Assembly: GCA_034679345.1 (NCBI GenBank)
Contig: JAXDAY010000028.1
Span: 71,876 to 135,875, forward strand
Direction of reading: 5' to 3'
Length of the DNA: 64,000 nt
Source: Candidatus Eiseniibacteriota bacterium
GTDB taxonomy: Bacteria > Eisenbacteria > RBG-16-71-46 > CAIMUX01 > VGJL01
A program made the translations under genes and the position numbers. This document shows, piece after piece, positions 2,537 through 20,970 of the stretch (positions are counted from its first letter, which is position 1; every line of letters starts with the position of its first letter). The notes beneath the pieces were generated by a model. The model saw nothing but the letters and a program-made list of their open reading frames with translations. It did no database searches and was not told the DNA's origin.

Positions 2537-3265
2537 TCAGAGCGCGAGCGCGCTCCGGAAGGTGCTGCTGAGCCGGAGCCCCGACTCCATCTGGACCCGC
2601 GGGCTGCGCGACTTCCCGACCTCGGTGAAGGCGTTGTAGAGCGACCAGGCGGTCCGGGGAGCGAACTCCTCGTGCCGCGGCCTCTCCCACGCCTCGATCA
2701 CCTTCGGCAGATTCGACGCCGGCAGGACGTTCCGCCGGACAGCCTCGACCAACAGATGGTCGGCTGACTCGGGCGAGAGCTCCCGCGCCTTCATCGCGGC
2801 GATCTCCTCGTGGATCCGGCTCTGCATGGAAGAGACCTTCGAGAGCATGCGGTAGATGAGGTCCGGGAGATCCCGGAAGACGTTGACCGTGTGCTTTCGG
2901 CTCGTGCCGACCTCCCCCGAGAACGCGAGGTTGTCGCAGCAGAAGACCCGGCTACCCGCGACGATCCCGACCGCGAGGGAGCGGTCGTAGCTCGAGCGCA
3001 GGCCGAGGGCGAGCGCGTAGTCGGCGTGGTCGCCGCCATTCCGGCAGGTGAGCACCCCGAACATCTGGAGCCCGTCGCGCGCGAGCGCGTAACGTGCATC
3101 GGTGATCGTGAGGCCGAAGCGTGGGACGTGGAGTTCGACCTCCTCGACGAAACGGCCGTATGGGACCGGGACGTACGAGTCGGTCTCCTCGGGAACGGGG
3201 ACGGCGGCGAGGTCGGCCTTCGTGGCCTCCCAGCCGCCGCGATGCAGGACGAGCTGACCGGGCAT
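2537..3265 (-). CDS. phage/plasmid-related hypothetical protein (DUF932/TIGR03299-like, tentative)
   Basis: 242-aa ORF with protein-like composition, followed by the terminator. Family assignment is from memory of DUF932-type proteins on integrative elements and could not be verified. Confidence 0.5.
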   Translation of the reverse strand: MPGQLVLHRGGWEATKADLAAVPVPEETDSYVPVPYGRFVEEVELHVPRFGLTITDARYALARDGLQMFGVLTCRNGGDHADYALALGLRSSYDRSLAVGIVAGSRVFCCDNLAFSGEVGTSRKHTVNVFRDLPDLIYRMLSKVSSMQSRIHEEIAAMKARELSPESADHLLVEAVRRNVLPASNLPKVIEAWERPRHEEFAPRTAWSLYNAFTEVGKSRSPRVQMESGLRLSSTFRSALAL

Positions 3266-3286: not shown

Positions 3287-3727
3287 TCAGATCGTGGATG
3301 GGTCGAGCAGGCCCCTCTCGCGGAAGGAGAGGTACGCGGAATCCCCCGCGACGATGACGTGGTCGAGCACGTCGATGCCGAGGAGCTTCCCGGCGTCGGC
3401 GAGGCGGTTCGTGATCTCCATGTCGTCGTCCGAGGGCGCGACGTCCCCCGAGGGGTGGTTGTGGGCGAGGATGATCGCGGCCGCGGCGGCGTTGATCGCG
3501 GGACGGAACACTTCTCTGGGATGGACGATGGAGGCGTTCAAGCTCCCCACCGACACGGTCTCGATGCCGAGGACGACGTGGCGGGTGGTGAGCAGGAGGA
3601 CGAAGAAGTGCTCGCGCTTCGGATCCGACACGGACTTGCGGACGAGCCGCGCGACCTGCTCTGGGCGCGTGACGGCCGGCGGCTTCCGGCCCCGGTACTT
3701 GCGCGTCTTCAGCTCCGCGACGTACAT
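3287..3727 (-). CDS. radC: RadC-like JAB/MPN domain protein
   Basis: LAHNHPSGDVAPSDDD is the JAMM HxHxxxxxxxD motif characteristic of RadC. Start placed at an internal ATG (3727) preceded by GGAGGTG. Confidence 0.8.
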   Translation of the reverse strand: MYVAELKTRKYRGRKPPAVTRPEQVARLVRKSVSDPKREHFFVLLLTTRHVVLGIETVSVGSLNASIVHPREVFRPAINAAAAAIILAHNHPSGDVAPSDDDMEITNRLADAGKLLGIDVLDHVIVAGDSAYLSFRERGLLDPSTI

Positions 3728-3819
3728 GCGGACACCTCCTGGTTGCGACGGGAGGAAGAGAAGCGGGGCCTCCGGGAATCTCCCGAAGGCCCCTGACGAT
3801 ACGGACGGAAGAACACGGG

Positions 3820-4581
3820 CTACTCCCCCCGCCACGACTGGCAGTGCGCGAAGTACTCGCACTCCGTGCACCGCCAGGAGGGATTCGGGAAGAAGCAGCC
3901 GTGACCGATGGCCTGGCCGACGCCGTGGAGGAGTCGGGCGGTCCAGGAGAGATCCTCGACCGTGCGGCTGGTCTCGTGGCGCTCAAGCCGGGGCGCCTTC
4001 GTCTTCAGGAGCATGTCGAGCCGGAGCCGAGGGAGCCTGTGGTAGGAGAGGTAGAAGACGAGGGCGTAGGTCGAGAGCTGGAAGTGCCGGTCGAGGCCGC
4101 CCGCTTCGAGCGTCCGCGCCGCGGTCTTCAGCTCCACGAGCACGTCCCCTTCCTCGATGAGGTCGATGACCCCACGGAGGCGCGTGTCGAGGATCTCGCC
4201 CGTGAGCGGATCGACGAGGTCGATCTCGAAGCGCTGTTCGATGAGCTTGGGGCGCGTCCCGTCGGTCTCCTCGACGTAGAGGGCGAGCATCTCCCGGCCC
4301 TTCTCCGCGAGCGACTCCTTCGAGTCCTTCTCGCTGAAGACGATCGGGGCGAGGTTCGCCGCGTACCAGTCGGCCGCGAAGATGTCGATCACCTTCTCCG
4401 GCGTCGGCATACGGCCGGCGAGGCGTTCCCGCTGGAACCACTCCACGGCGGCGTGGACGGAGGAGCCGAAGGCGAGGGCGGCGGCGCGCCACGGGAGCGG
4501 GATGCGGTCGACGTACTGGAAACGGTACTTGAGCGGGCAGACGAGGTAGCACTGGACCTGGCTAACGCTGAGCGGCTCCAT
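3820..4581 (-). CDS. Cas4-like PD-(D/E)XK exonuclease with a C-terminal 4-Cys (Fe-S) cluster
   Basis: Has VDRIPLPW...VELKTAAR (the D..ELK core) and a C-terminal CFFPNPSWRCTECEYFAHC. Overlaps the upstream gene by 20 nt, indicating an operon. Confidence 0.8.
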   Translation of the reverse strand: MEPLSVSQVQCYLVCPLKYRFQYVDRIPLPWRAAALAFGSSVHAAVEWFQRERLAGRMPTPEKVIDIFAADWYAANLAPIVFSEKDSKESLAEKGREMLALYVEETDGTRPKLIEQRFEIDLVDPLTGEILDTRLRGVIDLIEEGDVLVELKTAARTLEAGGLDRHFQLSTYALVFYLSYHRLPRLRLDMLLKTKAPRLERHETSRTVEDLSWTARLLHGVGQAIGHGCFFPNPSWRCTECEYFAHCQSWRGE

Positions 4582-5224
4582 CGGGCACCTCCTGCAGGAG
4601 CCGGTCGATCGCCTGGGTCGCCTGCTGTTTCGTCACCTCCCTGAGCGAGGTCACGCCCAGGAAATCCTGCAGGTACTCGTGGGCGGCGTCGCCCTGGAGT
4701 CCCTGCCCGGCGAGGATGCGGAAGAGGTAGCGGCGCTGCGCCTCGGTCATGAGCGCGCCGTTGCCGCTGGCCCGAGGCGCGGGGCGGGGTCCTTCGGGGA
4801 GCGGGCGCTCGGGCGGGAGCGGTGCACCCGACCCGAGGTCGTGACCATTCGAGGCGAGGCCGTCGCCGTCCAGCTCCTCGAAGGAGACGATGCCGATGTT
4901 CACGGCATCTCGGAGGGCGCGAGCCTTCGCCCGGGTCTCGGCCATGCGGATCAGGTGCGGGGCGATGAAAGTCGAGACGTTCTCGGGACTCGCGTCTCCG
5001 ATCGCCTCGAACCTCCCCTTCGTCGTCTCGATCAGGGCCTTCGCGATCGCGGTGCGGCCGTTCTCGTCAGAGGGGATCTGGAGGAGCTTCGTCGCCACGC
5101 GCTGGAGTCCCTCCTCGTGGGCCTTCGAGAGGAGCCCCGGATAGGTGACGACGTCCTTCGTGCCGACGACGCGGCCGGTGCGGTCCTTGATCTCGATCGT
5201 GCGGATCAGGGCGTTCTGGTTCAC
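4562..5224 (-). CDS. hypothetical protein, putative phage single-strand annealing protein (Rad52/ERF-like, tentative)
   Basis: 220-aa ORF translationally coupled to the Cas4-like exonuclease, the usual SSAP+exonuclease arrangement. No diagnostic motif was confirmed. Confidence 0.55.
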   Translation of the reverse strand: MNQNALIRTIEIKDRTGRVVGTKDVVTYPGLLSKAHEEGLQRVATKLLQIPSDENGRTAIAKALIETTKGRFEAIGDASPENVSTFIAPHLIRMAETRAKARALRDAVNIGIVSFEELDGDGLASNGHDLGSGAPLPPERPLPEGPRPAPRASGNGALMTEAQRRYLFRILAGQGLQGDAAHEYLQDFLGVTSLREVTKQQATQAIDRLLQEVPDGAAQR

Positions 5225-5321
5225 GGCGGAACCTCCTTCGGTTGGTGGGGAAGATGGGTTGGCAAGGAACGAGCGGATCGTTCCCCTTCACCGTACGGAG
5301 GGAGCGGATGCTTGCGTACGC

Positions 5322-5355
5322 GGCGGAGGTGCGGTCGGTCTCACGGGCTGTGGAT
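5322..5355 (+). repeat. copy C of a conserved ~35-bp motif (GGCGGAGGTrnGG-n-GTCTCAC-n-CTGTGGAT)
   Basis: ggcggaggtgcggtcggtctcacgggctgtggat, in the divergent intergenic region between 4562..5224(-) and 5451..6446(+). Matches copies at 9127 and 11097. Confidence 0.6.
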
Positions 5356-5450
5356 ACCAAAGACGCGATCGACCTTGTGTGCTATTGTGACGGCCGGCTT
5401 GGCCATGAAGGAAACGCGGCCGGCTGGAAGCAGATTGTCCGTAGGTCGAG

Positions 5451-6446
5451 ATGGCACAGATAACGAGATCAGCGAGACTGCTCAAGAAGGCCGAGGCGGC
5501 GCTCATCAGCGCCATCGAGGTTTATAACAAACCCGCGTTCAGGTACCGAGAGGAGACGTTCGCGATACTCATGCTGAATGCGTGGGAACTCCTCCTCAAG
5601 GCGAAGCTCCTGCGGGAGAACAACAACGACCAGCGGTGCCTTTATGTGTACGAGAAGCGCAAGACGAAGACGGGACGGGTCTCCCAAAAGTCGGTGCCGA
5701 AAAAGAACCGGAGCGGCGGCACCCAGACCAAGGGTCTTGGGCAGGTCATCGTGGAACTCGACGCGGATGGCCGCACACGGCTCGCGAATCCGATCCGCGT
5801 GAACCTCGAGGCCATGACTGAGATTCGAGACAATGCCGTCCACTACTTCAATGCGAGCCCGCAGCTCGCCAAGCAAGTGCTCGAGATCGGTACCGCCTCG
5901 ATCAGGAACTTCATCGAGCTCGCTCGCCGATGGTTCTCGATTGACCTTTCATCGTACGGTCTGTACCTCATGCCCATCGGATTCGTCGCTGCACCGGCGA
6001 CGGTAACAGCGATCCCCGTATCTCCCGACGAGCGGAAGCTCGTTCAGTATCTCGCCGGGGTCATCGGGTCGTCACGCAGTGACCAAGATCGGGAGTTCAA
6101 CGTCGCCCTGGAGGTGGGACTCTCGTTCCGTCGTGCTCCGGCCGGTGCGGTCGCTGCCGTCGCGGTGACGAACGACCCGAACGCGCCACGAGTCAGGATC
6201 TCGGAAGACGACGTCTGGAAGTCCTACCCCTGGGATTACGTGGAAATGGTACGACGCCTGCGTACCCGCTACTCGGACTTCAAGACCACTTCGAAATTCC
6301 ACGCCATCCGCCGGCCGCTTATGGCCGACCCACGATATGTCCGCACGCGCTACCTCGATCCGGCGAAGCCGCGGAGCGGGAAGAAACACTTCTACAACAG
6401 CAACATTCTCACGGAGTTCGACAAGCACTACACCCTTCGGAAGTAG
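5451..6446 (+). CDS. DUF3644 domain protein
   Basis: N-terminal ALISAIEVYNKPAFRYREETFAILMLNAWELLLKAKLL matches the DUF3644 (PF12358) signature with its conserved (A/V)YN. Markedly lower GC than the flanks. Confidence 0.65.
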   Translation: MAQITRSARLLKKAEAALISAIEVYNKPAFRYREETFAILMLNAWELLLKAKLLRENNNDQRCLYVYEKRKTKTGRVSQKSVPKKNRSGGTQTKGLGQVIVELDADGRTRLANPIRVNLEAMTEIRDNAVHYFNASPQLAKQVLEIGTASIRNFIELARRWFSIDLSSYGLYLMPIGFVAAPATVTAIPVSPDERKLVQYLAGVIGSSRSDQDREFNVALEVGLSFRRAPAGAVAAVAVTNDPNAPRVRISEDDVWKSYPWDYVEMVRRLRTRYSDFKTTSKFHAIRRPLMADPRYVRTRYLDPAKPRSGKKHFYNSNILTEFDKHYTLRK

Positions 6447-7017
6447 CTCGTCCCTCGACACCCGTGGAGGCGCTCCGCACCGACGCAAACGTGCGCTTCG
6501 TACCGCCCGCTCCACGCTCCATGGCCAATGCCACCGCCAGCGCGTCGAACATGTGGAGCCAGTAGCGCTCCCCCGGCCTGTATCCCAGCGTCGGATGCGG
6601 CGGACCTTTCGGCAACAGGCGACGGAGATCCTCGAACCCCGCCCGGATGATGGCCTGAGCCACATCGTATTTGCGCGCGTGCGGATTCCCGACGAGGCGC
6701 CGCCGGACCTCCTGCGGGGAGAGTTCCACGACGCGTAACCCGAGCTCGCGCGAGCGGGCATGGAGCTCTTGGGTGATGACCGAGACGAGCGCGACCCGTT
6801 TCGTCGGGCGGTGGATCGGCTCCTCGATGGCCACGATCTCGGGACCATGGCGTTCGATGTAGGCGAAGATGACTTGGCGGGCCTGGTCGATGAGGTCGCG
6901 CGGCCGGCCGCCGTTGCGGAGCGTATGGACGCCGAAGCCGAGGAGGCGCGGACCGTGGATGACGGCCGCGCCCATCTCGCGCGTTCCCGGGTCGATGCCG
7001 AGGATGGTCGGTGTCAT
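6409..7017 (-). CDS. ruvC: RuvC-family Holliday junction resolvase
   Basis: ILGIDPGTREMGAAV (catalytic Asp motif), VAIEEP (Glu) and HMFDALAVALAME (C-terminal Asp motif). Confidence 0.8.
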   Translation of the reverse strand: MTPTILGIDPGTREMGAAVIHGPRLLGFGVHTLRNGGRPRDLIDQARQVIFAYIERHGPEIVAIEEPIHRPTKRVALVSVITQELHARSRELGLRVVELSPQEVRRRLVGNPHARKYDVAQAIIRAGFEDLRRLLPKGPPHPTLGYRPGERYWLHMFDALAVALAMERGAGGTKRTFASVRSASTGVEGRATSEGCSACRTP

Positions 7018-7164
7018 GGCGTCGGGCCTTTCGGTGCCCTCCCGAGATGACCGCGCGGCGTGCCCCGTCTTGCTCGGGATGCACGGCCGTCGCGGCGGCA
7101 GTCCGCAAGGAGATCTGCCTTTGGAGCCCGGCCTCAGGAGAGGCCGCGGGAGGGCGGTGCTTGC

Positions 7165-7659
7165 TCAGGCGTGCTCGCCCTGGTGGTGGAGGGCGAGAGC
7201 GACCGCGTCGAAGAGGTTGAGGAAGTAGCATTCCTTCCAGCGCCGGTCCTGCGTCAGGTGGACGCGCAGTTGCGGGAAGCGGGTCGCGACGGCGAGGGCC
7301 GTCTCCCGCTTCGTCGCGCGTCCGCTCCCGACGATCGCCTTGCGCACCGTCTGCGGCGCGTACTCGGCGATCTCGATGCGCGCGGTCCGCGCGATGCGGC
7401 GCGACGCACGGGCCAGGCAGTGGAGCGCCGCGAAGCCAGGCACGGGGTGGCGGTAGGTCGCTTCGAGGACGAGGACCCGGGGCCGGTAGGCACGAATCCA
7501 GTCGGCGACGAGCCGTCGGGCTTCTGCATGGCGGCGGCTGCGCGGGAGGAGTCGCAAGGGTCGGACGCCCGCGGCAACGAGGCGCGGACCCCGGAGGACC
7601 GCGAACCCGAGATCGCGGAGCCCCGGATCAAGGGCGAGGATCGTTCGATTCTTGTTCAT
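7165..7659 (-). CDS. RuvC-family Holliday junction resolvase, second tandem paralog
   Basis: Internal ATG at 7659 gives MNKNRTILALDPGLRDLGFAV, then VLVLEATYRH and NLFDAVALALHH. The long ORF extension upstream of that ATG is low-complexity. Confidence 0.75.
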   Translation of the reverse strand: MNKNRTILALDPGLRDLGFAVLRGPRLVAAGVRPLRLLPRSRRHAEARRLVADWIRAYRPRVLVLEATYRHPVPGFAALHCLARASRRIARTARIEIAEYAPQTVRKAIVGSGRATKRETALAVATRFPQLRVHLTQDRRWKECYFLNLFDAVALALHHQGEHA

Positions 7660-8179
7660 GGGCGTGGCGTTTGAGGAGATAGAGGAAGAGCGCGGTACGC
7701 GAGCGGCGGATCGCCGTCGCTGGGACCGCGAGGGCGCCGGCGAGAGCGCGCTGCACGACCGCGTCGGGATGCGCATCGAGGGCCGCTTCCAGGAGATCTC
7801 GGTGGTCGGATTCGCCGAGCGCACGCTCGACCTTCGCGATCGTGAAGAAACGCTGGGGCTCGGCTGGCGCATCGGGAACGGGATCCGGAATGGAGGCGCG
7901 ACGGATCCGGATGCGCGTCGCTCCGTCGAGCCGCGTCGCGTCGATGTACCGCGCGGCCCGGAGATGCCCGAGCCAGCTGCGGATCGTGCCTTCGGGGAGA
8001 CCCATCGCGGTGGCGACCTCGGCCGGGCGGATCTCGAGCTCGGTCGCCCCGGCGGGGAGGCGCGCGAGGAGATCAAGGTAGAGCCAGACCGAGGCCCGCA
8101 TACGCCGGAGGTGGAACGCGCGCGGGTGTTCGAGGAGGCGGCGGTCAAGCGTGATCGTGAACTCGTGGGGATGGGACAT
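7628..8179 (-). CDS. winged-helix DNA-binding protein, paralog B
   Basis: Starts at an internal ATG (8179). ASVWLYLDLLARLPAGATELEIRPAEVATAMGLPEGTIRSWLGHLRAARYI is HTH-like. Paralogous to 8145..8807, including the C-terminal tail. Confidence 0.55.
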   Translation of the reverse strand: MSHPHEFTITLDRRLLEHPRAFHLRRMRASVWLYLDLLARLPAGATELEIRPAEVATAMGLPEGTIRSWLGHLRAARYIDATRLDGATRIRIRRASIPDPVPDAPAEPQRFFTIAKVERALGESDHRDLLEAALDAHPDAVVQRALAGALAVPATAIRRSRTALFLYLLKRHAHEQESNDPRP

Positions 8180-8807
8180 GGGGTTCGTGGGAGAACTTCT
8201 CGAGGAGGAAGCGGAGGAGCGCGGACTTCGACGCGCGGATCCGCGACCGAGGCGTGAGGCGGACGCGCCGTACCGCGCGCCGCGCGACGGGTACCGGGTA
8301 GCGGGCGAGGAGGGCCGGAAGGTCGTCTCCGGCCTCGCGGCCGAGCGCCTCACGGGCTTCGGCGAGGAGCGCCGCCCCTTCCCCCGCTCCCCCTTCCCCG
8401 CATGCAGCAGCAACTCCAGGAGTTGCTGCTGCTGCAAGCAGCTTGCTGACAGGTACAACTCTCATCGAGGAGCCGCTCGCAGAGCCGGATTCCGGGGCTT
8501 TCGGCGCGGGAGACGAGGATGCACCGGGCCAGAATCGCAGTCGGATGACAAGGTACGGGGAGGGAGACGTGATCGCGATGAGACCGGAGCGGGTGAGTCG
8601 GGCGAGACCTTCATCGATCGCCGAGGCGGAAGCGGAGAGCTCGCTCGCGAGGCGGTCGCGGGTGCGGATGACCCTGCCCCGATCGTTCGCCGCCAGCGCG
8701 AGGGCGATGTAGAGCGCGAGGGTACGATCCACCCCGCCCTCCGGTATGCGTGCGCGTAGCGCCGCCGCGAGCACGGAGCGAAGACCGGCGAGGGACGGGT
8801 CCGTCAT
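8145..8807 (-). CDS. winged-helix DNA-binding protein, paralog A
   Basis: Its ATG (8805-8807) overlaps the TGA of the XRE gene as ATGA. DRTLALYIALALAANDRGRVIRTRDRLASELSASASAIDEGLARLTRSGLI is HTH-like. Confidence 0.55.
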   Translation of the reverse strand: MTDPSLAGLRSVLAAALRARIPEGGVDRTLALYIALALAANDRGRVIRTRDRLASELSASASAIDEGLARLTRSGLIAITSPSPYLVIRLRFWPGASSSPAPKAPESGSASGSSMRVVPVSKLLAAAATPGVAAACGEGGAGEGAALLAEAREALGREAGDDLPALLARYPVPVARRAVRRVRLTPRSRIRASKSALLRFLLEKFSHEPHVPSPRVHDHA

Positions 8808-9088
8808 GCGTCCGTCGTCTTCGTCTCGCGCCGCCCACGCGGGTACGGGCAGTAGAGGCCCGCATAGAGAGCCTCGGTGAGCGTGTCGAGCGCCTTCGCG
8901 AGCAGGAAGAGGTTCGGCACCGTGGGGAGCACGCGACCGCGCTCCCAGCTCGACACCACGCTCCGATCGTGACCGACGAGTTCCCCGAGCCTCCGCTGGG
9001 TGAGACCCGCGCGGATCCGGTAGTACCGGATCGCATTCGGGAACCGCTCGGGCACCGTCGATCGCCTGAGGGTGTACTCGACCGTCAT
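8804..9088 (-). CDS. XRE-family (Cro/CI-type) HTH transcriptional repressor
   Basis: LTQRRLGELVGHDRSVVSSWERGRVLPTVPNLFLLAKAL is a canonical XRE HTH. Divergent from the recombinase operon. Confidence 0.85.
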   Translation of the reverse strand: MTVEYTLRRSTVPERFPNAIRYYRIRAGLTQRRLGELVGHDRSVVSSWERGRVLPTVPNLFLLAKALDTLTEALYAGLYCPYPRGRRETKTTDA

Positions 9089-9126
9089 GGCCCCACCCTA
9101 GCGGATACCAGGGAAACCGGAAGAGG

Positions 9127-9202
9127 GGTGGAGGTGAGACCTCTCTCACCCCCCTGTGGATAGGAGATTTGCCCACAGGGAGGTGATATCCCCTTCACCT
9201 CC
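9127..9202 (+). promoter_or_regulatory. divergent promoter/operator region; includes copy A of the ~35-bp motif
   Basis: Three inverted repeats: GGTGAGA-n4-TCTCACC (9133-9150), CCCTGTGG-n13-CCACAGGG (9152-9180) and GGAGGTGA-n8-TCACCTCC (9179-9202). Lies between the XRE repressor (-) and ORF 9247 plus the recombinase (+). Confidence 0.6.
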
Positions 9203-9246
9203 GCCGCCTACGACGTCCTCACGCGGCGCGGCATGCTGGGGTCGCC

Positions 9247-9432
9247 ATGCTCACGCAGAAGGCCATCGACGACCTCAAGGCGATCTGGCTCCGGAAGTAC
9301 GGGGAGCAGCTCACGGACGCGGAGGCGTGGGAGATGGGCAACCGCCTTCTCCGCGTCTTCGCCGTCCTCCTGCGTGCCCCCATGCCGAAGCGGGACGAGA
9401 AGGTTCGAACCGCGTCCACGAGCCTGTATTGA
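9247..9432 (+). CDS. small hypothetical protein (Cro-like or recombination directionality factor candidate)
   Basis: 61-aa ORF with balanced composition, immediately upstream of and co-directional with the serine recombinase, and divergent from the XRE gene. Confidence 0.45.
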   Translation: MLTQKAIDDLKAIWLRKYGEQLTDAEAWEMGNRLLRVFAVLLRAPMPKRDEKVRTASTSLY

Positions 9433-9486
9433 CGTGCTGCGGAACTTAATTCTACGATTCCTCCCTCGAGCATTGATCCCACGCCC

Positions 9487-11049
9487 GTGCCCCGCTACTT
9501 CCTCTACGCCCGCAAGTCGTCCGAATCCGAAGACCGCCAGGTCCTCTCGATCGACTCCCAGATCCGAGAGCTGACGGCGTACGCACACGCGCAGGGATTC
9601 GACATCGCGTCGGTCCTCTCGGAGTCGCGATCCGCGAAGGCGCCGGGGCGACCAGTCTTCGGGGAGATGATGACCGCGATCGCGCGCGGGAAGGCAGACG
9701 CGGTCCTCTGCTGGAAGCTCGACCGCCTCGCGCGCAACCCGGTCGACGGCGCCGCGCTCATCTGGGCCGTCGACGAGGGCAAGCTCAAGCAGATCGCGAC
9801 GCGCGACCGGGCCTTCGCGAACACCGGGAACGACAAGTTCTGGATGCAGCTCGAGTTCGGCATGGCGAAGAAGTACGTCGACGACCTCTCCGACAACGTG
9901 AAGCGCGGCAATCGGGCGAAACTCGAGCAGGGGTGGCTCCCCGGCGTGCCGCCGCTCGGGTACGTGAACGACCTGGCCACGAAGACGATCGTCAAGGACC
10001 CCGCGCGCTTCGACCTCGTCCGGCAGATGTGGGACCTCGTCCTCAAGGGCTGGTCGCCACCCGACGTCCTCCTCGTCGCGAACGAGGACTGGGGCTTCCG
10101 CACGCGGCAGTACCGCAAGAAGGGCGGCGGCCGGCTGCAGCGGAGCTACTTCTACCACATGCTCGCCGATCCCTTCTACTACGGCCTCATCCACCGCAGC
10201 GGCGAGACGTACCCCGGGGCGCATCCTCCGATGGTCTCGAAGGACGAGTTCGATCAGGTCCAGGAGATGCTCGGCCGGCCGAACCGCAGCCCGAAGCCCC
10301 AGCGCACCTTCGCCTTCACGGGCCTCATTCGCTGCGGGGAGTGCGGCGCCGCGATCACAGCGGAGGAGAAGGTCAACCGCCGCTACGGCTATCGCTACTG
10401 CTACTACCACTGCACGCGGCGCAAGCACGGAACGACCTGCCGTCAGGACGCCATCCGCGTCGACCGGCTCGAGACGCAGATCCGGTGCGAACTCCGGCGC
10501 ATCGCGATCGATGACGACGTCCGCGACTGGGCCATCGCGAACCTGCGGAGCGTCCATGAGCAGGAGACGCGCTCCCGCCAGGCGACGGATGTCTCGCTCG
10601 ACGCCGCCCTACGGGATGCGCAGAAGCGGCGCGACGCCCTCGTCGACCTGCGGCTGCGGGGCCTCCTCACGGATGCGGAGTTCCTGCCGAAGAAGCAGGC
10701 ATTGGTGGAAGAGGAGCTCCGTCTCCGGGAGCGTCTGACCGACTCCGACGGACGCGGCACCCACTGGTTAGAACTAGCCGAACGGGCCTTTCTCTTCGCG
10801 AATCAGGCCTTGAAACGCTTCAATACGGGGTCGCTCGAAGAGAAGCGCGAGATCCTCGTCGCGCTCGGTTCGAACTTTCTCCTCGAGGGCGGAAACCTGC
10901 GAATTCAGCTGCAAAAACCCTTCCACCTGATCGCGGAGGGGTCTCGAAATTCAAGTTGGCTCGGCATCGTGGACGGAGTTAGAACCTTCTTCGCTAACCA
11001 TCCACGTTTCATTCGATGGCCGTCGTTCTGTCTGCCGATCGCTGCGTGA
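9487..11049 (+). CDS. large serine recombinase (integrase)
   Basis: N-terminal resolvase domain YFLYARKSSESEDRQ with the catalytic Ser, a recombinase domain, a zinc ribbon (CGECG...CYYHC) and a C-terminal coiled-coil. 520 aa. Confidence 0.95.
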   Translation: MPRYFLYARKSSESEDRQVLSIDSQIRELTAYAHAQGFDIASVLSESRSAKAPGRPVFGEMMTAIARGKADAVLCWKLDRLARNPVDGAALIWAVDEGKLKQIATRDRAFANTGNDKFWMQLEFGMAKKYVDDLSDNVKRGNRAKLEQGWLPGVPPLGYVNDLATKTIVKDPARFDLVRQMWDLVLKGWSPPDVLLVANEDWGFRTRQYRKKGGGRLQRSYFYHMLADPFYYGLIHRSGETYPGAHPPMVSKDEFDQVQEMLGRPNRSPKPQRTFAFTGLIRCGECGAAITAEEKVNRRYGYRYCYYHCTRRKHGTTCRQDAIRVDRLETQIRCELRRIAIDDDVRDWAIANLRSVHEQETRSRQATDVSLDAALRDAQKRRDALVDLRLRGLLTDAEFLPKKQALVEEELRLRERLTDSDGRGTHWLELAERAFLFANQALKRFNTGSLEEKREILVALGSNFLLEGGNLRIQLQKPFHLIAEGSRNSSWLGIVDGVRTFFANHPRFIRWPSFCLPIAA

Positions 11050-11096
11050 TGTCATCATGCCACCAGCATACGATTCCGGTATGCGGGTGCGTAGGT

Positions 11097-11131
11097 GGCG
11101 GAGGTAAGGGGTGTCTCACCTCCCTGTGGAT
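11097..11131 (+). repeat. copy B of the ~35-bp motif, 48 bp past the recombinase stop (candidate att/recombinase-binding half-site or distal operator)
   Basis: ggcggaggtaaggggtgtctcacctccctgtggat. Same GGAGGT-to-TGTGGAT spacing (25 nt) as copy A. It has the CCCTGTGG left arm but lacks the CCACAGGG partner. Confidence 0.6.
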
Positions 11132-11249
11132 TCTCGGGCTAGTCCCGCACGAGAGACTGTAAGATGGCCCTGGTGAATCTGCAGGCGCTGATCGTGCCCG
11201 CAATCTCAGTCTGGCAAGACGCCTTTACGGGGCCTCATTGGAGCCCTGG

Positions 11250-12920
11250 TCATCTCAGAGATTCCACAATTGCGCGAAACGACTGCGCCAGCTCAGGAGC
11301 GCCGTCGAGCCAGGCCATTACGAGAATCGGGTTACCAGACGTACGGGGTATGCACACTGTCTCATAGGTATACGCGTAGTCTGCCGTCGTCACCCCCGGC
11401 TTGGTATGCAGTGTGAGGTGGGAGCTAGCAATGCCGCCAATATCCCATACTGATGAGGAGGTCACTTCGTAGTTTGGATTGTGGGCTGTGAAGAATCTGC
11501 TACAGTTCTCCATAGTTGAAAAGTCAAAGGTCGTCGCACTTGCATCAATGACGATTACGCGACCCGCGCCATGATAGTCTTCAAGCCCAGACACATGAGT
11601 GCCACCGATATCCCACGCAATACTGAAGTTAGGCGGGTATCGGAAAGTGAAGTCTTGTTTCGAATCGGTGTACGTGAGCCAGTCGCCCGGAACCGTCGAC
11701 GTGTTCGTTGCTGAGACCTTCAGGGATGCAAGGATGCTCTGGACGATACGGTGCATGCCGTCCGCCTGGGCAGCGGGGAGGCCGCCGTCAGCAGCGACGA
11801 TTTCGTCGACAACATCGCCCACCACGAGGCTTCCTCCCTCTGGGAGATCGAGAAGGTACGAGACGCCGATCAACGGCGGGTTAGCACGAAGACGCGTGAA
11901 GGTGTTGTGCCCAATAGTCACCGTCGACAGACGGTCGCTCGCAACATCCCTGAGGTAGTCCTCGACACCATCGTCCCGAAGAACGAGGGAGACTGGGGAC
12001 ACAGGCGAACCTTCAAATGCGTAGGTCGCGCCCCTGGGCTGCAGATGAATCACGGTGACATATCCAGACGCCTCGACGAGATCCCAATCTTGCGGGTATC
12101 GAAACGAGAATCCGCGCGCATCCGTATGGATCTGCCAATCGTTCGTGAGGGCTTCGACGGCGCCCGCATCGGTGAACGATTGCAGAATGCCCTCAAAGGC
12201 ATCTAGCTTCTCCTTCGTGCTGGTCAGTCCGACGTACGCCGCGCAGGCGTCCTTTACGGTCATGTCACCCGTCGCGATGGCATCGATCGGTGGGCCTTCA
12301 TCGGTGAACGCGATGGTGAACCGATACTCCGGCGTCAGTGTGATGAACGAGACCGCGTAGCGCGGCCCACCCTCGCTGCCACCGCAGTCCTCACTTCGGT
12401 AGCCGCGGACACCTTGGGACGTGGTCATCCGTGACACCGTCGCACTGGGGTATGTGAGCCAGGATGGGATGTCTCCGCCGTCAATGTACGCCTCCTCCTG
12501 TACAACGCTGGTCTTCGTGACATGGGGTGCTAGTTCTGGCAATGAGGCCCGATCCTCGACGGTGATCTGATACCGTACCGGACCACGCTCGACCAAGAAC
12601 GGGTGGTAGGAGTCGTGGTACTCACTGAGTGCCCACGTCGCATCGTACGTCACCGCGAAGCCATAGTTGAGGTTGGTCAGACGCGTCAGTCCCGTGCCTT
12701 GCAGTGGGGCGATGATATACTGCACAGTGGAATCGGCTTCCGGCTCTGCCAAGGGCGGTGTCACGACGCCTATATTGGTGTCAGTGTTGGTATTATCACC
12801 CGTCGTGTTCTCCTGATGCTCCTGGAAATACCAGGCGCCAACGCCAACAAGCACCAGCGCGAGAGCAGCGGCGAGGTGTTGGAAAGTAATGATCCTCTGA
12901 CAGCTAAGCGAGTTCCTCAT
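11250..12920 (-). CDS. hypothetical exported protein (low-GC, likely acquired)
   Basis: ATG at 12920 gives MRNSLSCQRIITFQHLAAALALVLVGVGAWYF (signal/anchor) then an N/T-rich linker. About 52% GC against a ~68% background. Confidence 0.55.
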   Translation of the reverse strand: MRNSLSCQRIITFQHLAAALALVLVGVGAWYFQEHQENTTGDNTNTDTNIGVVTPPLAEPEADSTVQYIIAPLQGTGLTRLTNLNYGFAVTYDATWALSEYHDSYHPFLVERGPVRYQITVEDRASLPELAPHVTKTSVVQEEAYIDGGDIPSWLTYPSATVSRMTTSQGVRGYRSEDCGGSEGGPRYAVSFITLTPEYRFTIAFTDEGPPIDAIATGDMTVKDACAAYVGLTSTKEKLDAFEGILQSFTDAGAVEALTNDWQIHTDARGFSFRYPQDWDLVEASGYVTVIHLQPRGATYAFEGSPVSPVSLVLRDDGVEDYLRDVASDRLSTVTIGHNTFTRLRANPPLIGVSYLLDLPEGGSLVVGDVVDEIVAADGGLPAAQADGMHRIVQSILASLKVSATNTSTVPGDWLTYTDSKQDFTFRYPPNFSIAWDIGGTHVSGLEDYHGAGRVIVIDASATTFDFSTMENCSRFFTAHNPNYEVTSSSVWDIGGIASSHLTLHTKPGVTTADYAYTYETVCIPRTSGNPILVMAWLDGAPELAQSFRAIVESLR

Positions 12921-12975
12921 AATGTCACTTCGCAACGTTGCGTCTACACTGTATCAGGGACAGCGCCACGATGTG

Positions 12976-14655
12976 CTACTCAACCCACCCGAGGTAAGTC
13001 GTGAACGCTGTTTCCACGGGGGAACGGTAGACAATTGCGCCTGTGTGCACATCAACTAGATAGAAGCGTCTCGTACCATCTGCCAACTGGGTACATGGCA
13101 CCATGAGGTATCCATCGGGTGTCATTGCAAGCACATCATACTCCTCGGCATTAGCAGGCAGTACTGCTAACTCGGCTTGCTGACCCTGTAGCGTTCGTGT
13201 GATGAGGTGGAGTTGATTGTCGTCTTGCATAGTCGCAACGACGACGGCATCATCTGACACAAAGGTGGCGGTTAGGAGCGAGCCTGGCACGCTAAAGGTG
13301 TCCTCGGTCGTAGCGTCCACGTCGGCTACAGACACGGAGCGCTCATGATCATTCGGGTATTGCGGAGATGATATGTACAGAATATGCCGCATATCAGGGC
13401 TGATCGCAGCTTGCAGGTATTGGCGAGCATCATCGTGTACGAGCGGATGGACTAGGTAGGGATCGGCTGGTGCGGAGAGCCAAACGCCGGGTTCGGAGTA
13501 TCCTCCGGGATTGGCGACCACATATTCATCAGTACTTGGTGACCAAGAAAGCCGATTCGTCCCCCCGCCGATGCTAAGCCTTTTGAACCCTGCGGGATGG
13601 TTTGGCTCCATGATGGCATAGTAACCACCCTCATAGTAGCCTAGCGAGAGATTGATGTACTTACCGGATGGGGACCACCCAGGATTCGCGAGGGAATAGA
13701 CCCCGTCGAGACCGTCCAGCGACCATTGTGGCGCCATCTCGGTATCCCCAGGAGGTCGACTCGTGATATCAAACAATCGCCGGGTGGTACCCGTCACACG
13801 ATCCCATATCGCCACCCCATCCTGTTCGACAAAGAGCAGATCGGAACCGTTTGGTGCGAGAGCGATGCTAGGCGGTCTCATGCTCCAATAGTTAGAATTC
13901 ATTTCGGCTGGCAACGACTCATCATACGTAAAGAGCGTTGTTGCACTGGCGTTGCTCGTGTTGAGTATCCACACGGTGACCTGCGTTCCAGACTTCGTTG
14001 CATAGAGCATCCTAGCATGGCTCATCACAGCCACATTGTCGACCGGTGGCAACAACGTGAAGCTCTCCCGCAGCGTCTCTAGGCGCAATGCACACATTTC
14101 CTGGTAGTCCGGCATCGTAGCTGACGCGAGTGAAACGAGATACAGAGAGTCGGTTATCTGGGTTGATTCTACTATCTGGGAAGTATTGTCGCGTGATCGC
14201 CAGATGCTTACTTCACGCGTTGCCCCGGCAATATCCTCCGTACGACTGCCATCCTGATCAAAGGTTGCCAGGAACGTAGTTGGTTCTACCGTGTATACAC
14301 GCAATTCGCACGGCAAACCACCAGTGAAGAACACCGCATAGTCCTTGTTGCTGAGATCCATATACTCGCCGAGTACGCTCCAATCGAAATAACTATAGCC
14401 AATCGAATATCCAAGAAGATCATTCGTGAAGCGGCGTGTGAGGAGGAAGTCAGACTTACGTGGATGGAGGCTTTGCGTCTCGTTCGTCGAGGGCACCGGC
14501 ACGGTTGTATTGTAGGTTGTGGCAGCCATGTTTGTGTCGCCCTGATCACGGGTCACGAAGTAGTACGCACCCGTAACGAGGAGCGTCAGGACAAGGACGA
14601 AGGCCAGAACAGGTAGGGTGGTGATGCTGTTGAGGTTGGATGGGGTCTTAGACAT
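12976..14655 (-). CDS. exported beta-propeller protein (TolB-like PD40 repeats)
   Basis: ATG at 14655 gives MSKTPSNLNSITTLPVLAFVLVLTLLVTGAYYF. WSPSGKY and SWSPSTDEYVV repeats are PD40-like. Low GC. Confidence 0.55.
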   Translation of the reverse strand: MSKTPSNLNSITTLPVLAFVLVLTLLVTGAYYFVTRDQGDTNMAATTYNTTVPVPSTNETQSLHPRKSDFLLTRRFTNDLLGYSIGYSYFDWSVLGEYMDLSNKDYAVFFTGGLPCELRVYTVEPTTFLATFDQDGSRTEDIAGATREVSIWRSRDNTSQIVESTQITDSLYLVSLASATMPDYQEMCALRLETLRESFTLLPPVDNVAVMSHARMLYATKSGTQVTVWILNTSNASATTLFTYDESLPAEMNSNYWSMRPPSIALAPNGSDLLFVEQDGVAIWDRVTGTTRRLFDITSRPPGDTEMAPQWSLDGLDGVYSLANPGWSPSGKYINLSLGYYEGGYYAIMEPNHPAGFKRLSIGGGTNRLSWSPSTDEYVVANPGGYSEPGVWLSAPADPYLVHPLVHDDARQYLQAAISPDMRHILYISSPQYPNDHERSVSVADVDATTEDTFSVPGSLLTATFVSDDAVVVATMQDDNQLHLITRTLQGQQAELAVLPANAEEYDVLAMTPDGYLMVPCTQLADGTRRFYLVDVHTGAIVYRSPVETAFTTYLGWVE

Positions 14656-14769
14656 GGGTAGCGGGATGCTCTCCAATGTGGCACAGAGACCGGTGATGTC
14701 AAGGTAGGGGGAACGACCCCCGGATGGGAACCAAAGAAAAATCCCCAAGGAGGCTTGGGGATCGGCGGG

Positions 14770-16935
14770 CTACCGCACGATGACGATGCGCCGGGTCGGT
14801 GCGGTCGCCTGCGGGAGCCGGTAGAAGTAGACGCCAGAGGAGAGCTGCGGGAGCGAGCGCTTGAGCGCACCTGCCGTGAGCTGCTCCGGCTTGAGGTCGA
14901 GGGTGGTGACGAGCCTGCCGGCGACGTCGTAGACGCGGATGGGCACGGTCCCCTCCTTCGTCCGGCTGAGGACGATCGTCGGGTCGTCGACCGGCGGTTC
15001 GGGAGGCGGGACCTTCCAGCTCGGGTGGCCCCCATCGCAAGCATCCCAGGAGCCGTAGCCGTTCGATTGGCGGTCGAAGCACTGGTAACCAGTCGATGCG
15101 ATGTAGACCGCGAAGTCCATCCGGCCATCGCCATCGTAATCACCGACGCGAACCGGGTCGGAGGTGCTGCCGTAACCGCCGAACGGAGGATCTGTCCAGC
15201 TTCCGAACCCACCGCCATCCGCATGATAGTCCACATGCCAAACATGGTTGGCATCCCGGACCGCGATGTCGCAGTAGCCGTCACCATCGTAGTCGGCGGG
15301 GCACGGTGTGTCCGGGTAGCCGCCGTAGCCACCGAGGTTCGTGACATCCCAGGTTCCAGAACTGCCGAAGGCGTTACTCAAGGACGTTCCCGGATCGAAG
15401 TAGTTGATGAGGAACTTCCGGTCCGAGTTGCGGAGGAGAGCGATGTCCACGTACCCGTCGCCGTTGAAGTCACCAGCGCAGGGGCTGTCGTAGATCGTCC
15501 CGCCGTCGTGGGTCGCATCCCACCCGGTGAAGCCATTGCTCGAGAAGTCGAAACGCCAGTACCCGTTCGTGTCGCGGACGGAGATATCGGCCTTCCCATC
15601 GCCGTCGAAGTCTGCCCCGACGGGCGCGTCGCCGTAGCCGCCGTAGCCGCCGAGGTTCGTGACGTCGTACCCACCGAGGTTGTTGCACGCGTAGTCGATG
15701 AGGAACTTCCGATCAGAGTTTCGAAGGACGGCGATGTCGCAGATGCCGTCGCCGTCGTAGTCGGCCGGGCAGGGCGTATCCTGGGTGCCACCGTAGCCCT
15801 GGCCGACCCAGGCGTCCCACCCGCTCATGCCATCCGCGTCACCGCAGAAGTCGATGTGGAAGAGGCCGTCCGAGGTGCGGTCCCAGGCATCGGAGAGGCC
15901 GTCGCCGTCGAAGTCGTACGGCGTGTGGTGAGCTACGTCGACGTGCACCGAGAAGTGCGTCTGTCCCCAGCCTCCGATGATCTCGGTGTCGAAGCAGGGG
16001 CCGAAGTAGACGTCGTACGTGCCGTGGGCGATCGGCCGGATCCTGCCGACGAAGTTGAAGGTCGCGACCCCGTTCGTTGCGACGCTCGTTTCCTCGAAGG
16101 TGCAGGGCGACGGACAGCTGTTCCAGTCGTAGGGAGCTGGAGCGGTACAGGGGTAGTTGAAGAAGCTCTCCCCGATGGTTGCGGATTCGTTGCACGACGC
16201 GAGCTCGACGTACCCTTCCGGGTGTTGCTGGGCATTGCTGTACCACGTCGCCGACCCCGTGTTCCGGAACTTCACCTGGCAGGTGACGTAGTCGTACATG
16301 TGGTACGGGCCAGAGGGACTGATGGACTTCGAGACGAAGGTGCAGGCGAGTGTTGGCTGGGGCGGCGGAGGAGGCGTGTCGTTGCCATAGAGGATTGGAT
16401 CGGTGAACAGGCCGCCATCGTACGTGTAGGGGTCGACTGCCGTCCAGGCGCTGTTGATCCACGCGCGAGTCTCCAGATGAAGATGGTACCCGCCTCCGTA
16501 ACCGCATTCAGGGACCCCGTCGTGATCCACATCCGAGGCCGTGTACCCCGAGTTACTTGACTTCCCGATGTACTGCCCAGCAACGACAGTCTGCCCACCA
16601 TAGACCACAACAGTTCCGGCGAGCATGTGAGCCTCGATCACCTGTAGGTGGTACTGATCGTTCTGGATCTTGACGTAGTTGCCGTAATTTGGCGGGTCGC
16701 ATACCTGCCCGGCAACATCACCGATTGCAGTGATCACGGTGCCACCGATCGCTGCGTAGACATTCGTGCCCTGTGGACACCGGTAGTCCACACCAGGATG
16801 CCCATCGTAGCAGGCATCGCCGAACGGACACGTCACATTCCGAGCGCCGTCGAATGGGAACCAGAGCACCTTGGCGCCGAAAGCGACACCCGTGACCAGG
16901 GACATGAAAAGCACCAGAAGAACAAGAGCCCGCAT
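14770..16935 (-). CDS. M23 family metallopeptidase with FG-GAP/VCBS repeats and a T9SS-type C-terminal sorting domain
   Basis: Signal peptide MRALVLLVLFMSLVTGVAFGA with AGGAGG upstream. M23 motifs HPGVDYRCPQGT and HLHLE. Repeated DFDGDG/DYDGDG. C-terminal tail VYDVAGRLVTTL...SGVYFYRL. Confidence 0.85.
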   Translation of the reverse strand: MRALVLLVLFMSLVTGVAFGAKVLWFPFDGARNVTCPFGDACYDGHPGVDYRCPQGTNVYAAIGGTVITAIGDVAGQVCDPPNYGNYVKIQNDQYHLQVIEAHMLAGTVVVYGGQTVVAGQYIGKSSNSGYTASDVDHDGVPECGYGGGYHLHLETRAWINSAWTAVDPYTYDGGLFTDPILYGNDTPPPPPQPTLACTFVSKSISPSGPYHMYDYVTCQVKFRNTGSATWYSNAQQHPEGYVELASCNESATIGESFFNYPCTAPAPYDWNSCPSPCTFEETSVATNGVATFNFVGRIRPIAHGTYDVYFGPCFDTEIIGGWGQTHFSVHVDVAHHTPYDFDGDGLSDAWDRTSDGLFHIDFCGDADGMSGWDAWVGQGYGGTQDTPCPADYDGDGICDIAVLRNSDRKFLIDYACNNLGGYDVTNLGGYGGYGDAPVGADFDGDGKADISVRDTNGYWRFDFSSNGFTGWDATHDGGTIYDSPCAGDFNGDGYVDIALLRNSDRKFLINYFDPGTSLSNAFGSSGTWDVTNLGGYGGYPDTPCPADYDGDGYCDIAVRDANHVWHVDYHADGGGFGSWTDPPFGGYGSTSDPVRVGDYDGDGRMDFAVYIASTGYQCFDRQSNGYGSWDACDGGHPSWKVPPPEPPVDDPTIVLSRTKEGTVPIRVYDVAGRLVTTLDLKPEQLTAGALKRSLPQLSSGVYFYRLPQATAPTRRIVIVR

Positions 16936-16987
16936 GTCGTACCTCCTTTGGGAAACACCAGTATGTTGTGAAGGGGCAAGCCGAGAG

Positions 16988-17644
16988 CTACCGAACAAGC
17001 GCGAACGTGGGAAGAACGGTGCCACAGACATTGTCGAAGCACGAAAGAACGAGAGTCTTCTGCCTCCAGGTGAGAACGTAGTAGACAAGGCTGGTATCAC
17101 GCCCGTATTGTGCTACACCCTGTTTGGCGGGCACTCCAGCAAGTTGCGTGTCGGTCCAGACAGGGACACCGTCCAGCGTGGACAGGTATGCGGTAACTGC
17201 AGGCTGAGCGTCATCGACGATATCGACGGTGACATAGGTGGAGCCACCTTCGTAGGGCACGGTGATATCACTGAGAAGGTGACCGTCGTAGGCTGCGCTG
17301 TTTATGGTGGTGTTGTCGGTAACATGGAGTGTGTCGTAATACCGGAATGCGTAGCCCCATGGATCGCTTGTATATGTAATCAATGATGATGGCGTATTGA
17401 CATTCGATATGGTGTCTGTGTTGCTAAGGGTATTGAGATTCTGATCGCCAGGGGTTGTGTTGAGAGTATTGGCGACAGAGTGTGTGTTGTTCAGGTTGCT
17501 GGTATTGGTGGTCACGACGATGCTCGTGTTCCTCCGGTCACGGTTCGGAAAATACACCGCGCCTGCGACGATAACTGCCAGGACGAGGACGATGGCCAAG
17601 ACGGGAAGTGAGGCGATGCCGCGAGGACTAGGGTGCTTCGGCAT
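16988..17644 (-). CDS. hypothetical exported protein with an N/T-rich linker (low-GC)
   Basis: ATG at 17644 gives MPKHPSPRGIASLPVLAIVLVLAVIVAGAVYF, then NTSIVVTTNTSNLNNT.... Same N-terminal architecture as 11250..12920 and 12976..14655. Confidence 0.5.
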   Translation of the reverse strand: MPKHPSPRGIASLPVLAIVLVLAVIVAGAVYFPNRDRRNTSIVVTTNTSNLNNTHSVANTLNTTPGDQNLNTLSNTDTISNVNTPSSLITYTSDPWGYAFRYYDTLHVTDNTTINSAAYDGHLLSDITVPYEGGSTYVTVDIVDDAQPAVTAYLSTLDGVPVWTDTQLAGVPAKQGVAQYGRDTSLVYYVLTWRQKTLVLSCFDNVCGTVLPTFALVR

Positions 17645-17801
17645 AGGTGGGAGGGTTACTACTGAGAGCACGGATCAGGTGGCCCCGATTCGATGCTGGC
17701 ACGGGCAGAGACGGACTTGCCGCGGGTGGAAGCCCAGCTACTATCAGCCTGACAGAATGACGGGAGGTGTCAAGACGATGGCATCGCCCTTCACGGCGTC
17801 G

Positions 17802-18551: not shown

Positions 18552-18569
18552 GGTGTCATCTCCTGCATG

Positions 18570-19649: not shown

Positions 19650-19799
19650 GGAATATCCCTTTCCGTCTTCGGTGCGGAGTGTGACCGCTTTCCGAGAGTG
19701 TTACTGATCGGATCTCCTGGGCTCATCGCGCGGAGGAGCCCTAACACGTGGCACTGTAAGCGGTTTTTTGTGAACAGTCAAGCAACGAAAAAGCGCCGC

Positions 19800-20896: not shown

Positions 20897-20970
20897 GACC
20901 TTATGTTAGCTTACGATTGTGAACAAGTCAATCCCTGTCACTCAGAAGACTACCTACCGATTTGAAGGGC

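Follow-up and report, generated by a model that had tools for sequence, protein, structure and literature searches.

Four paralogous promoter-operator modules as a candidate phage-like switch in an undescribed family of serine-recombinase elements

What is a short motif doing when its copies lie at both ends of a large serine recombinase gene and again several kilobases away from it? The question is raised by a 64,000-nt stretch of DNA from the uncultured Candidatus Eiseniibacteriota bacterium (contig JAXDAY010000028.1, positions 71,876 to 135,875; hereafter the window, approximately 65% GC), in which three copies of a motif of 35 bp had been pointed out within an element encoding an XRE-family helix-turn-helix (HTH) protein and the recombinase. 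The original prediction offered two explanations, an operator set for a CI-like repressor and binding sites for the recombinase or its directionality factor at the end of the element. We propose that each copy is the upstream half of a promoter-operator module and that four such paralogous modules would together form a switch of the phage kind, in a family of serine-recombinase elements not described before; we give this reading a probability of roughly 0.6. We are more confident of the part of it that makes them putative promoter modules, and less confident that the XRE protein encoded by the element uses the dyad within each module as its operator.

The copies begin at 5322, 9127 and 11097 on the + strand, where they had been placed, and the spacing given for them is also borne out, the starts of GGAGGT and TGTGGAT being 24 (5325/5349), 25 (9130/9155) and 25 nt (11100/11125) apart. 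The pattern TCTCAC-N3-4-CTGTGGAT has exactly three matches in the window, against 0.00 expected from 100 shuffles, and similarity among the copies extends on the GGAGGT side as TGCGTAsGyGGCGGAGGT. A single orientation holds for these three, but the count was one short: a repeat search reveals an inverted fourth copy at 9173–9212, 85% complementary to 11090–11129 over 40 nt, and the extra palindromes ascribed to the copy at 9127 are really the dyad and box of this separate unit. Searching the window with a profile of these copies gives the four, which lie within 5.8 kb, at E-values from 1e-8 to 1e-12, and nothing else in the 64 kb at better than E = 0.06; the only other weak match there, a GGAGG..CCTCC-type palindrome at 35144–35169 (E = 0.095), is probably due to chance. 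The exact motif pattern has no match in 185,579 representative genomes (one per GTDB species) or in IMG/VR, and only four single, unrelated and chance-like matches in JGI metagenomes. Random further copies had been named as the mark of a generic repeat; as there are only four copies in the window and none in the genome and viral collections, we rule out a repeat of the repetitive extragenic palindrome or miniature inverted-repeat transposable element kind.

Gene and domain calls agree with the context originally described for each copy. The 9127 copy lies between the XRE gene (8804–9088, −) and the genes for a 61-codon open reading frame (ORF), ORF61, and the recombinase (starts 9247 and 9487, +); the 11097 copy begins 48 bp past the recombinase stop (11049); and the 5322 copy lies between the gene for a 220-residue protein, p220 (start 5224, −), and a DUF3644 gene (5451, +). 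What changes is the direction of reading. Each copy would serve the gene that lies on its GGAGGT flank, with transcription leading away from TGTGGAT, contrary to the orientation that had been implied, and we read the modules 5' to 3' on the strand of the served gene, opposite to that on which the motif was described. The TGCGTA in the extended similarity is then a −35 element seen on the opposite strand. A promoter toward the TGTGGAT side was considered and rejected: there is no conserved −10 element at a fixed distance on that side, and the promoters of cargo genes lie at variable distances. Each module spans approximately 78 bp and is made up of a 9-bp box, TTRTCCACA (module positions 0–8), a short dyad (positions ~10–33), a C-rich stretch, a −35 element (between +39 and +46), a spacer of 16–17 nt and a −10 element, TAnnnT (between +62 and +68). 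In the window modules the box is centred near −72 and the dyad near −54.

We call the four modules C1 to C4. C1, which contains the 5322 copy, lies at 5290–5357 on the − strand and would serve the operon of p220, a PD-(D/E)XK nuclease, RadC and DUF932; it has the box GTATCCACA (5357–5349), a degenerate dyad (5325–5346), the −35 element TACGCA (5318–5313) and the −10 element TACGGT (5295–5290), followed by a leader of ~59 nt with the Shine-Dalgarno sequence GGAGG ahead of the GTG at 5224. C2, with the 9127 copy, lies at 9086–9163 (−) and would serve XRE, its parts being the box CTATCCACA (9163–9155), the dyad GGAGGTGA-N8-TCACCCCC (9130–9153), TTCCGG (9122–9117), TAGGGT (9100–9095) and an ATG at 9088. 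Back to back with it, across a gap of 5 bp between the head-to-head boxes, is C4, the fourth, inverted copy (9169–9249, +), which would serve ORF61 and the recombinase through the box TTGCCCACA (9169–9177), the dyad GGAGGTGA-N8-TCACCTCC (9180–9203), TACGAC (9209–9214), CATGCT (9232–9237) and an ATG at 9247. Finally, C3, with the 11097 copy (11056–11133, −), is predicted to be an antisense promoter that converges on the recombinase gene from its 3' end, with the box GAATCCACA (11133–11125), the dyad GGAGGTAA-N8-TCACCTCC (11100–11123), TACGCA (11093–11088), TATGCT (11070–11065) and an ATG at 11058.

The combination TACG-N18-19-TAnnnT occurs only twice in the 64 kb, both strands counted, in C1 and in C3, at the same offset from the box; TAnnnT itself stands at +62–64 in C1, C2 and C3, with CATGCT in its place in C4. 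In C2, C3 and C4 an ATG follows the −10 element by 6–9 nt, and the predicted mRNA is leaderless or nearly so for three of the four modules; as the distance is 6 nt in C2, the XRE mRNA would be leaderless. In the spacing of their two hexamers and their position ahead of a gene start, the predicted promoters answer to the sigma-70 type. A generic promoter scan picked up none of the window module promoters.

Comparison with relatives extends this pattern beyond the window. We compared the contigs with the closest recombinase homologues (L006–L009 and L024–L029) and 14 loci from GTDB genomes (L010–L023), metagenome-assembled genomes (MAGs) labelled Zixibacteria, Ignavibacteria, Patescibacteria, Gemmatimonadaceae and Planctomycetales; homologues of the recombinase with at least 50% identity number in the hundreds. 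The sequence of the window motif is not itself conserved in the relatives, where a motif of the same build occurs at the same places. The four window modules and seven from L006, L008, L024 and L026 align nearly without gaps over ~80 columns, with the A and last T of TAnnnT invariant and the ATG in the same column in 7 of the 11. Fifteen XRE-proximal copies align gapless over 48 nt, showing an invariant TGTGGA-Y-A-A with the dyad 5 nt before it. On the XRE sense strand, all nine low-GC relatives have TTGnnn exactly at +30 from the first base of TTATCCACA, then 16–18 nt, TAnnnT and the XRE start, while in the high-GC group the −35 element is at +40/41, one helical turn further from the box. The copy past the recombinase gene in L011 has a spacer longer by 10 nt, and by eye its −35 element, TTGATC, is again at +40; the same locus has a unit of box, dyad and TTGACA-17-TAGTAG ahead of a cargo gene. 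A covariance model built from the XRE-proximal copies recovered mostly its own training copies, the others scoring E > 0.01.

The dyad differs from the box in that it varies between elements and covaries within itself. Across 15 loci, 69.7% of dyad cells pair, against 48.4% when shuffled, and cells changed on both sides number 22 against 10.5; none of 500 shuffles reaches these values, and slid registers pair at only 33–48%. In the window, C2, C3 and C4 have the dyad GGAGGTGA-N8-TCACCTCC, a symmetric site of the size expected for an HTH dimer. In the window and several other elements, the copies of one element seem to share dyad arms that differ from those of other elements, as with CCCGAATTCGGG (three to four times in L018) and TTGTCG..CGACAA (three times in L016); arms shared two to three times are also seen in L012, L014 (TAyCCG..CGGGTA), L019, L022 and L011. 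In the few loci where the recognition helix of the XRE protein can be set beside the dyad type, SVAH or SVSH goes with TTGCC..GGCAA, NVSH with TTCCCG and NICH with TACCCG. These patterns suggest that the dyad is the operator of the element's XRE protein. To this extent the operator set originally proposed for a CI-like XRE repressor survives, supported by a covarying dyad at a fixed distance from the promoter elements, although its details differ.

The module past the recombinase gene deserves particular attention. The ATG of C3 at 11058, 6 nt past the −10 element, opens a 35-codon ORF antisense to the recombinase gene, and antisense modules at this place are also found in L006 (TACGCG-16-TATCCT-5-ATG), L026 (TACGCC-17-TACACT) and L011. 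In L018 the corresponding copy appears as the promoter/operator of a second XRE-like gene convergent with the recombinase gene, with TTGCGG...TACGCT ahead. This copy had been likened to a hybrid attL/attR half-site, or suggested as a distal looping site; the first description probably does not fit, and the second is too narrow for, a copy with a complete predicted −35/−10 promoter of its own and a leaderless ATG pointing into the recombinase gene. We read the product of C3 as an antisense transcript, or as transcriptional interference, and not as a protein, because the antisense ORFs are short and unrelated.

In the mechanism that we propose, C2 would drive XRE and its operon leftward, C4 would drive ORF61 and the recombinase rightward, C1 would drive the p220-nuclease-RadC-DUF932 operon, and C3, just past the recombinase stop, would be a convergent antisense promoter directed into the recombinase gene, with a transcript that would lower recombinase expression. 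In each of the four modules, the dyad peculiar to the element would be occupied by a dimer of its own XRE protein, and the invariant box, 5 bp from the dyad, by another factor that is conserved; thus the regulator, the recombinase (in sense and antisense) and the recombination/anti-restriction operon would be switched together.

Several observations weigh against this proposal. For the operator, an ungapped test of dyads within against between elements is positive in only 4 of 17 loci; the XRE-proximal dyad is not cleanly repeated in L006–L008 and L026; in C1 only about four of eight arm positions pair; and the dyad, at −43 to −54, is placed ahead of the core promoter, where simple repression by occlusion is not expected. 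As for the antisense module, the ORFs are short and not conserved (35 against 26 codons), and L007 and L008 have no clear module past the recombinase gene. All of the promoters are predicted from sequence, the −35 elements TACGCA and TACGAC in the window are far from TTGACA, and the −10 element of C4, CATGCT, is without the first T. Lastly, conserved DNA in the relatives ends ~20 bp or less from the box past the recombinase gene, which is also what an attachment (att) site would predict.

That last point leads to the first of the alternatives, which we regard as unlikely, namely that the copies are binding sites of the recombinase. C4 and C3 would then be inverted terminal half-sites (P' and P), either of a cassette of ~2 kb containing ORF61 and the recombinase gene or of the element as a whole; the recombinase domain would recognize the box, TGTGGAYAA, beside the crossover; and C1 and C2 would be target-like or accessory sites (res-like, autoregulatory). 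C4 and C3 do bracket the two genes and, as noted, are largely complementary, and an inverted copy ~300 bp upstream and a copy 26–113 bp downstream of the recombinase gene recur in many loci. In conservation the box equals the recombinase and exceeds XRE, and its ends face variable cargo slots. In the window and in L006 the conserved DNA stops within ~20 bp of the box past the recombinase gene; in L006 a flanking terminator stands 20 bp or less from the end of that box. The right flanks are different in every relative. In L011, two duplicates of the recombinase 3' end with its module are ~90% identical up to TGTGGATAAC and diverge within 1–2 nt after it.

However, the sites of large serine recombinases are imperfect inverted repeats of 40–50 bp around a central dinucleotide, and there is no such repeat here: the only symmetry is the dyad, with arms of 6–8 bp, inside each copy. 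An intact P-O-P' site should not survive integration, and the gap between head-to-head boxes, 2 bp in L007, 7 in L008 and 8 in L006 and L024, is ~130 bp in L011, L014 and L016 and is filled by kilobases of cargo (up to 7 kb) in six loci, while in L026 the copies are in tandem; this variable spacing rules out C2/C4 as an intact attP. Furthermore, copies lie at internal promoters with fixed −35/−10 geometry, the part next to the box varies between elements despite the conserved DNA-binding domains of the recombinase, the left end of the conserved block is without an inverted copy, and in L008 and L024 there is no post-recombinase copy at all. The suggestion that the copies mark the element end as recombinase or directionality-factor sites therefore finds no att site of the proper size, symmetry or spacing. 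Both the end of the conserved block at the post-recombinase box and the divergence of the L011 duplicates would also be expected if the functional part of the element finished with this module, or if the box provided short homology for module shuffling.

We looked for an empty site, but the homologue search with p561, a neighbouring gene product described below, was empty and L032, the locus of an orthologue of the nearby M23 peptidase gene, is without shared synteny; the intergenic alignment of the window with L006 is too diverged to place the junction to the base. AGTCCCG, found past the box in both the window and L026, is a 7-mer frequent in these GC-rich loci and has no partner at the left end. 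The tandem arrangement of L026 is in its XRE/ORF66 intergenic region (9590–9700), where two copies, with boxes at 9622 and 9683, point the same way and are accompanied by an 11-nt inverted repeat, GGGCGACGTCC / GGACGTCGCCC. In L011 (14207–14470) and L018 (13392–13840), a cargo gene, in L011 one for an AAA_13 ATPase, is followed by a duplicate of a C-terminal recombinase fragment and a motif copy, which points to the decay of tandem elements or to an exchange of modules at the box.

A similarly doubtful alternative concerns the box alone. Read on the other strand, TGTGGAYAA gives the DnaA box in both of its known forms, and the invariant box could be a true DnaA box, either with host DnaA as co-regulator beside the XRE operator, or with the XRE/ORF61 intergenic region as a replication origin of the excised element served by two proteins of the XRE operon, unk222 and unk170. 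The box equals TTATCCACA / TTGTCCACA at nine of nine positions in L010, L011, L012, L013, L018, L019, L022 and L023, across phyla; the constancy of the box beside an element-specific dyad would be understandable if it were bound by a host protein conserved everywhere; the box positions, −61 or −72, are one helical turn apart; and unk222 has a weak match to a phage replication initiator (phrog_270, E = 0.007). Against this, the window boxes match at only seven or eight of nine positions (C1 and C2 at eight, C4 at eight against TTGTCCACA, C3 at seven), boxes away from XRE are more degenerate (AGTGGA, GGTGGA, TGGGGA), and the conserved CC before TGTGGA is outside the DnaA box. No box cluster with an AT-rich unwinding element lies near any copy, there are no iterons, and the match of unk222 is marginal, with PDB and NCBIfam searches empty. 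By resemblance, the box corresponds to the DnaA-box consensus; it could be bound by host DnaA, the recombinase, ORF61, unk170 or unk222. It is a long shot that host DnaA on TTRTCCACA, paired with an element-specific XRE operator at a fixed helical phase, couples all promoters of this widespread family to the status of the host replication initiator; if DnaA does bind, so universal a box would let the element work across phyla.

The weakest alternative, a structured nucleic acid, whether an RNA leader hairpin or a single-stranded DNA hairpin beside a nick or cleavage site (oriT-, HUH- or attC-like), is very improbable: a stem with compensatory changes lies at a fixed 5 nt from an invariant sequence, and DUF932 and RadC genes are typical of the leading regions of conjugative elements, but there is hardly any pairing in C1, only 3 of the 62 paired cells are wobble pairs, protein searches found no HUH or relaxase gene, and the ordinary folding energies of the four copies (z = +0.6, −1.5, −0.1 and −2.0), the lack of an Rfam family and the position of the module upstream of its own predicted start favour a double-stranded protein-binding site. 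A known RNA or a tRNA-derived att site was also rejected, there being no tRNA and no Rfam match in the window, as were a sigma-54 reading (GG-N10-GC) of the C2/C4 junction, with a spacing that by eye is off by one and not conserved, and CRP-, LexA- and parS-like readings of TGTGG...CCACA, for which the spacings do not fit.

The genes around the four promoter-operator modules form a recognizable element. XRE (94 amino acids; HTH_3, E = 1.5e-13), the proposed binder of the dyad, is the first gene of a leftward operon continuing with unk222 (8145–8813, −), unk170 (7628–8140, −) and two RuvC-like genes (7165–7683 and 6409–7017, −), so that the rest of the operon covers 6409–8813; the two RuvC-like genes are diverged and in tandem, an arrangement kept in the closest relatives. 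Rightward lie ORF61 (9247–9432, +), a conserved protein (MPxxQxxIDxLKxIY...EAWEM...) always encoded upstream of the recombinase, and the 520-residue large serine recombinase (9487–11049, +; Resolvase, Recombinase and Zn_ribbon_recom domains). The leftward operon served by C1 (2537–5224, −) consists of p220 (4562–5224), the PD-(D/E)XK nuclease (3820–4581), RadC/JAB (3287–3871) and DUF932 (2537–3265). For p220, unk170, unk222 and ORF61, sequence searches of Pfam, PHROGs, NCBIfam and PDB were empty save for the marginal phrog_270 match. The core RuvC-unk170-(unk222)-XRE | ORF61-recombinase is common to all compared relatives, and the closest ones also have DUF932-RadC-nuclease-p220. No member of the element family was found in IMG/VR with one protein or with a 24-sequence profile. 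An independent Logan assembly of the window DNA (L005) stops at ~3817, at the RadC/nuclease junction, which may reflect strain variation or coverage and not a motif copy.

Cargo varies in two slots, one after p220 and one between XRE and ORF61 (3–7 kb in six loci). In the window, the slot on the box side of C1 (5360–6446, +) holds a sigma-70-like promoter (AAGACG, 5360–5365; 17 nt; TGc-TATTGT, 5383–5388) and the DUF3644 gene (5451–6446, +). Its counterparts hold HEPN_LA2681 in L007 (5213–6823) and small ORFs in L008 (6706–8169) and L026 (6264–7036), always transcribed away from the module, and the slot looks like a hotspot for defence-type cargo.

A second inverted repeat brackets the recombinase ORF, at 9398–9421 and 10967–10990 (21 of 24 positions complementary, z = 7.9). 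Its first arm, AGAAGGTTCGAACCGCGTCCACGA, lies in the 3' end of ORF61, ~65 nt ahead of the recombinase start, and its second, TCGTGGACGGAGTTAGAACCTTCT, spans the recombinase codons VDGVRTFF, ~60 nt ahead of the stop. Pairs centred on GGTTCGAAC are also present in L007, L011, L014, L016, L023, L013 (here past the ORF61 stop) and L026, with different flanks and the complementarity kept. Long-range RNA pairing and a DNA site are both possible functions.

Beyond the recombinase, at 11250–14748, are two genes of lower GC (57–61%) for secreted/membrane-type proteins of 561 and 590 amino acids, absent from the same place in L006; the homologue search for the first (p561) is the empty one mentioned above. 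They are followed by an M23 peptidase / FG-GAP protein with a type IX secretion system (T9SS) sorting domain (14770–17100), whose gene has internal repeats of ~150 nt (15105–15798); L006, L012 and L014 also encode similar proteins close to the recombinase. The best M23 orthologue (57% identity) is in a MAG of 50% GC labelled Kerfeldbacteria, without shared neighbours, and this suggests horizontal spread. Further on is a variable block (~17800–20900, going by the genes of L005) with a Lactamase_B-fold gene in the window and, in L006 (9413–13308), a cyclic-oligonucleotide-based anti-phage signalling system (CBASS) set (SMODS, E2, SAVED). The block terminates in an M78 peptidase and HTH pair in both, and looks like a defence island or a second element.

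The present analysis turns a repeat into a regulatory map of an uncharacterised integrative element, with four predicted transcription starts, near 9088 (−), 9245 (+), 5283 (−) and 11058 (−), one putative operator and one conserved box. A recombinase gene bracketed by paralogous sense and antisense modules is a design not usually described for serine-recombinase elements, and our literature search found nothing relevant. In addition, a 9-bp box identical to the DnaA box stays constant while the proposed operator adjoining it diversifies. If the binders are confirmed, the modules would show how such elements silence their recombinase and possibly sense the state of the host, and they would provide portable regulated promoters for hosts without genetic tools; the element family occurs in many poorly studied phyla.

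How does this arrangement compare with known systems? In the CI/Cro switch regions (OR/OL) of phages lambda, 434 and P22, as here, a gene of the XRE/CI HTH type is divergent from an operon that it presumably controls. Also as in these phages, the same putative operator dyad recurs at several promoters kilobases apart, and the repressor mRNA would begin at or next to the ATG, as does the leaderless cI mRNA from PRM. In the low-GC relatives the putative operator is centred near −43, like OR2 for PRM, and its sequence seems to differ between related elements as operators do between heteroimmune phages. Unlike the phage operators, which are tripartite, the element has one dyad per promoter, located upstream of the core promoter instead of over it, and at 5 bp from each dyad stands the invariant 9-bp box. 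In the element no partner resembling Cro was identified, control would fall on a serine recombinase gene and a recombination/anti-restriction operon and not on lytic genes, and the family is absent from IMG/VR.

For the box, the comparison is with DnaA-regulated promoters, where an identical 9-mer likewise stands singly upstream of promoters; the element's box differs in its fixed spacing to an element-specific dyad and in the lack of origin-like clustering, and the likeness is one of sequence alone. The att sites of large serine recombinases and the res sites of the Tn3 family also adjoin a serine recombinase gene, with inverted copies around it, and one pair lies in a divergent promoter, as res does between tnpA and tnpR; in contrast to these, the element's sites are without the size and symmetry of att, the spacing of copies is variable, and copies are also found at unrelated promoters. 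Lastly, IS10 RNA-OUT and the face-to-face promoters pR/pL of coliphage 186 and Pe/Pc of P2 are precedents for a promoter directed against a recombinase transcript and for sense and antisense transcription under related control sequences. The element differs from them in that its antisense promoter, whose RNA is here only predicted, is paralogous to the sense module over its full length and is placed at the recombinase 3' end.

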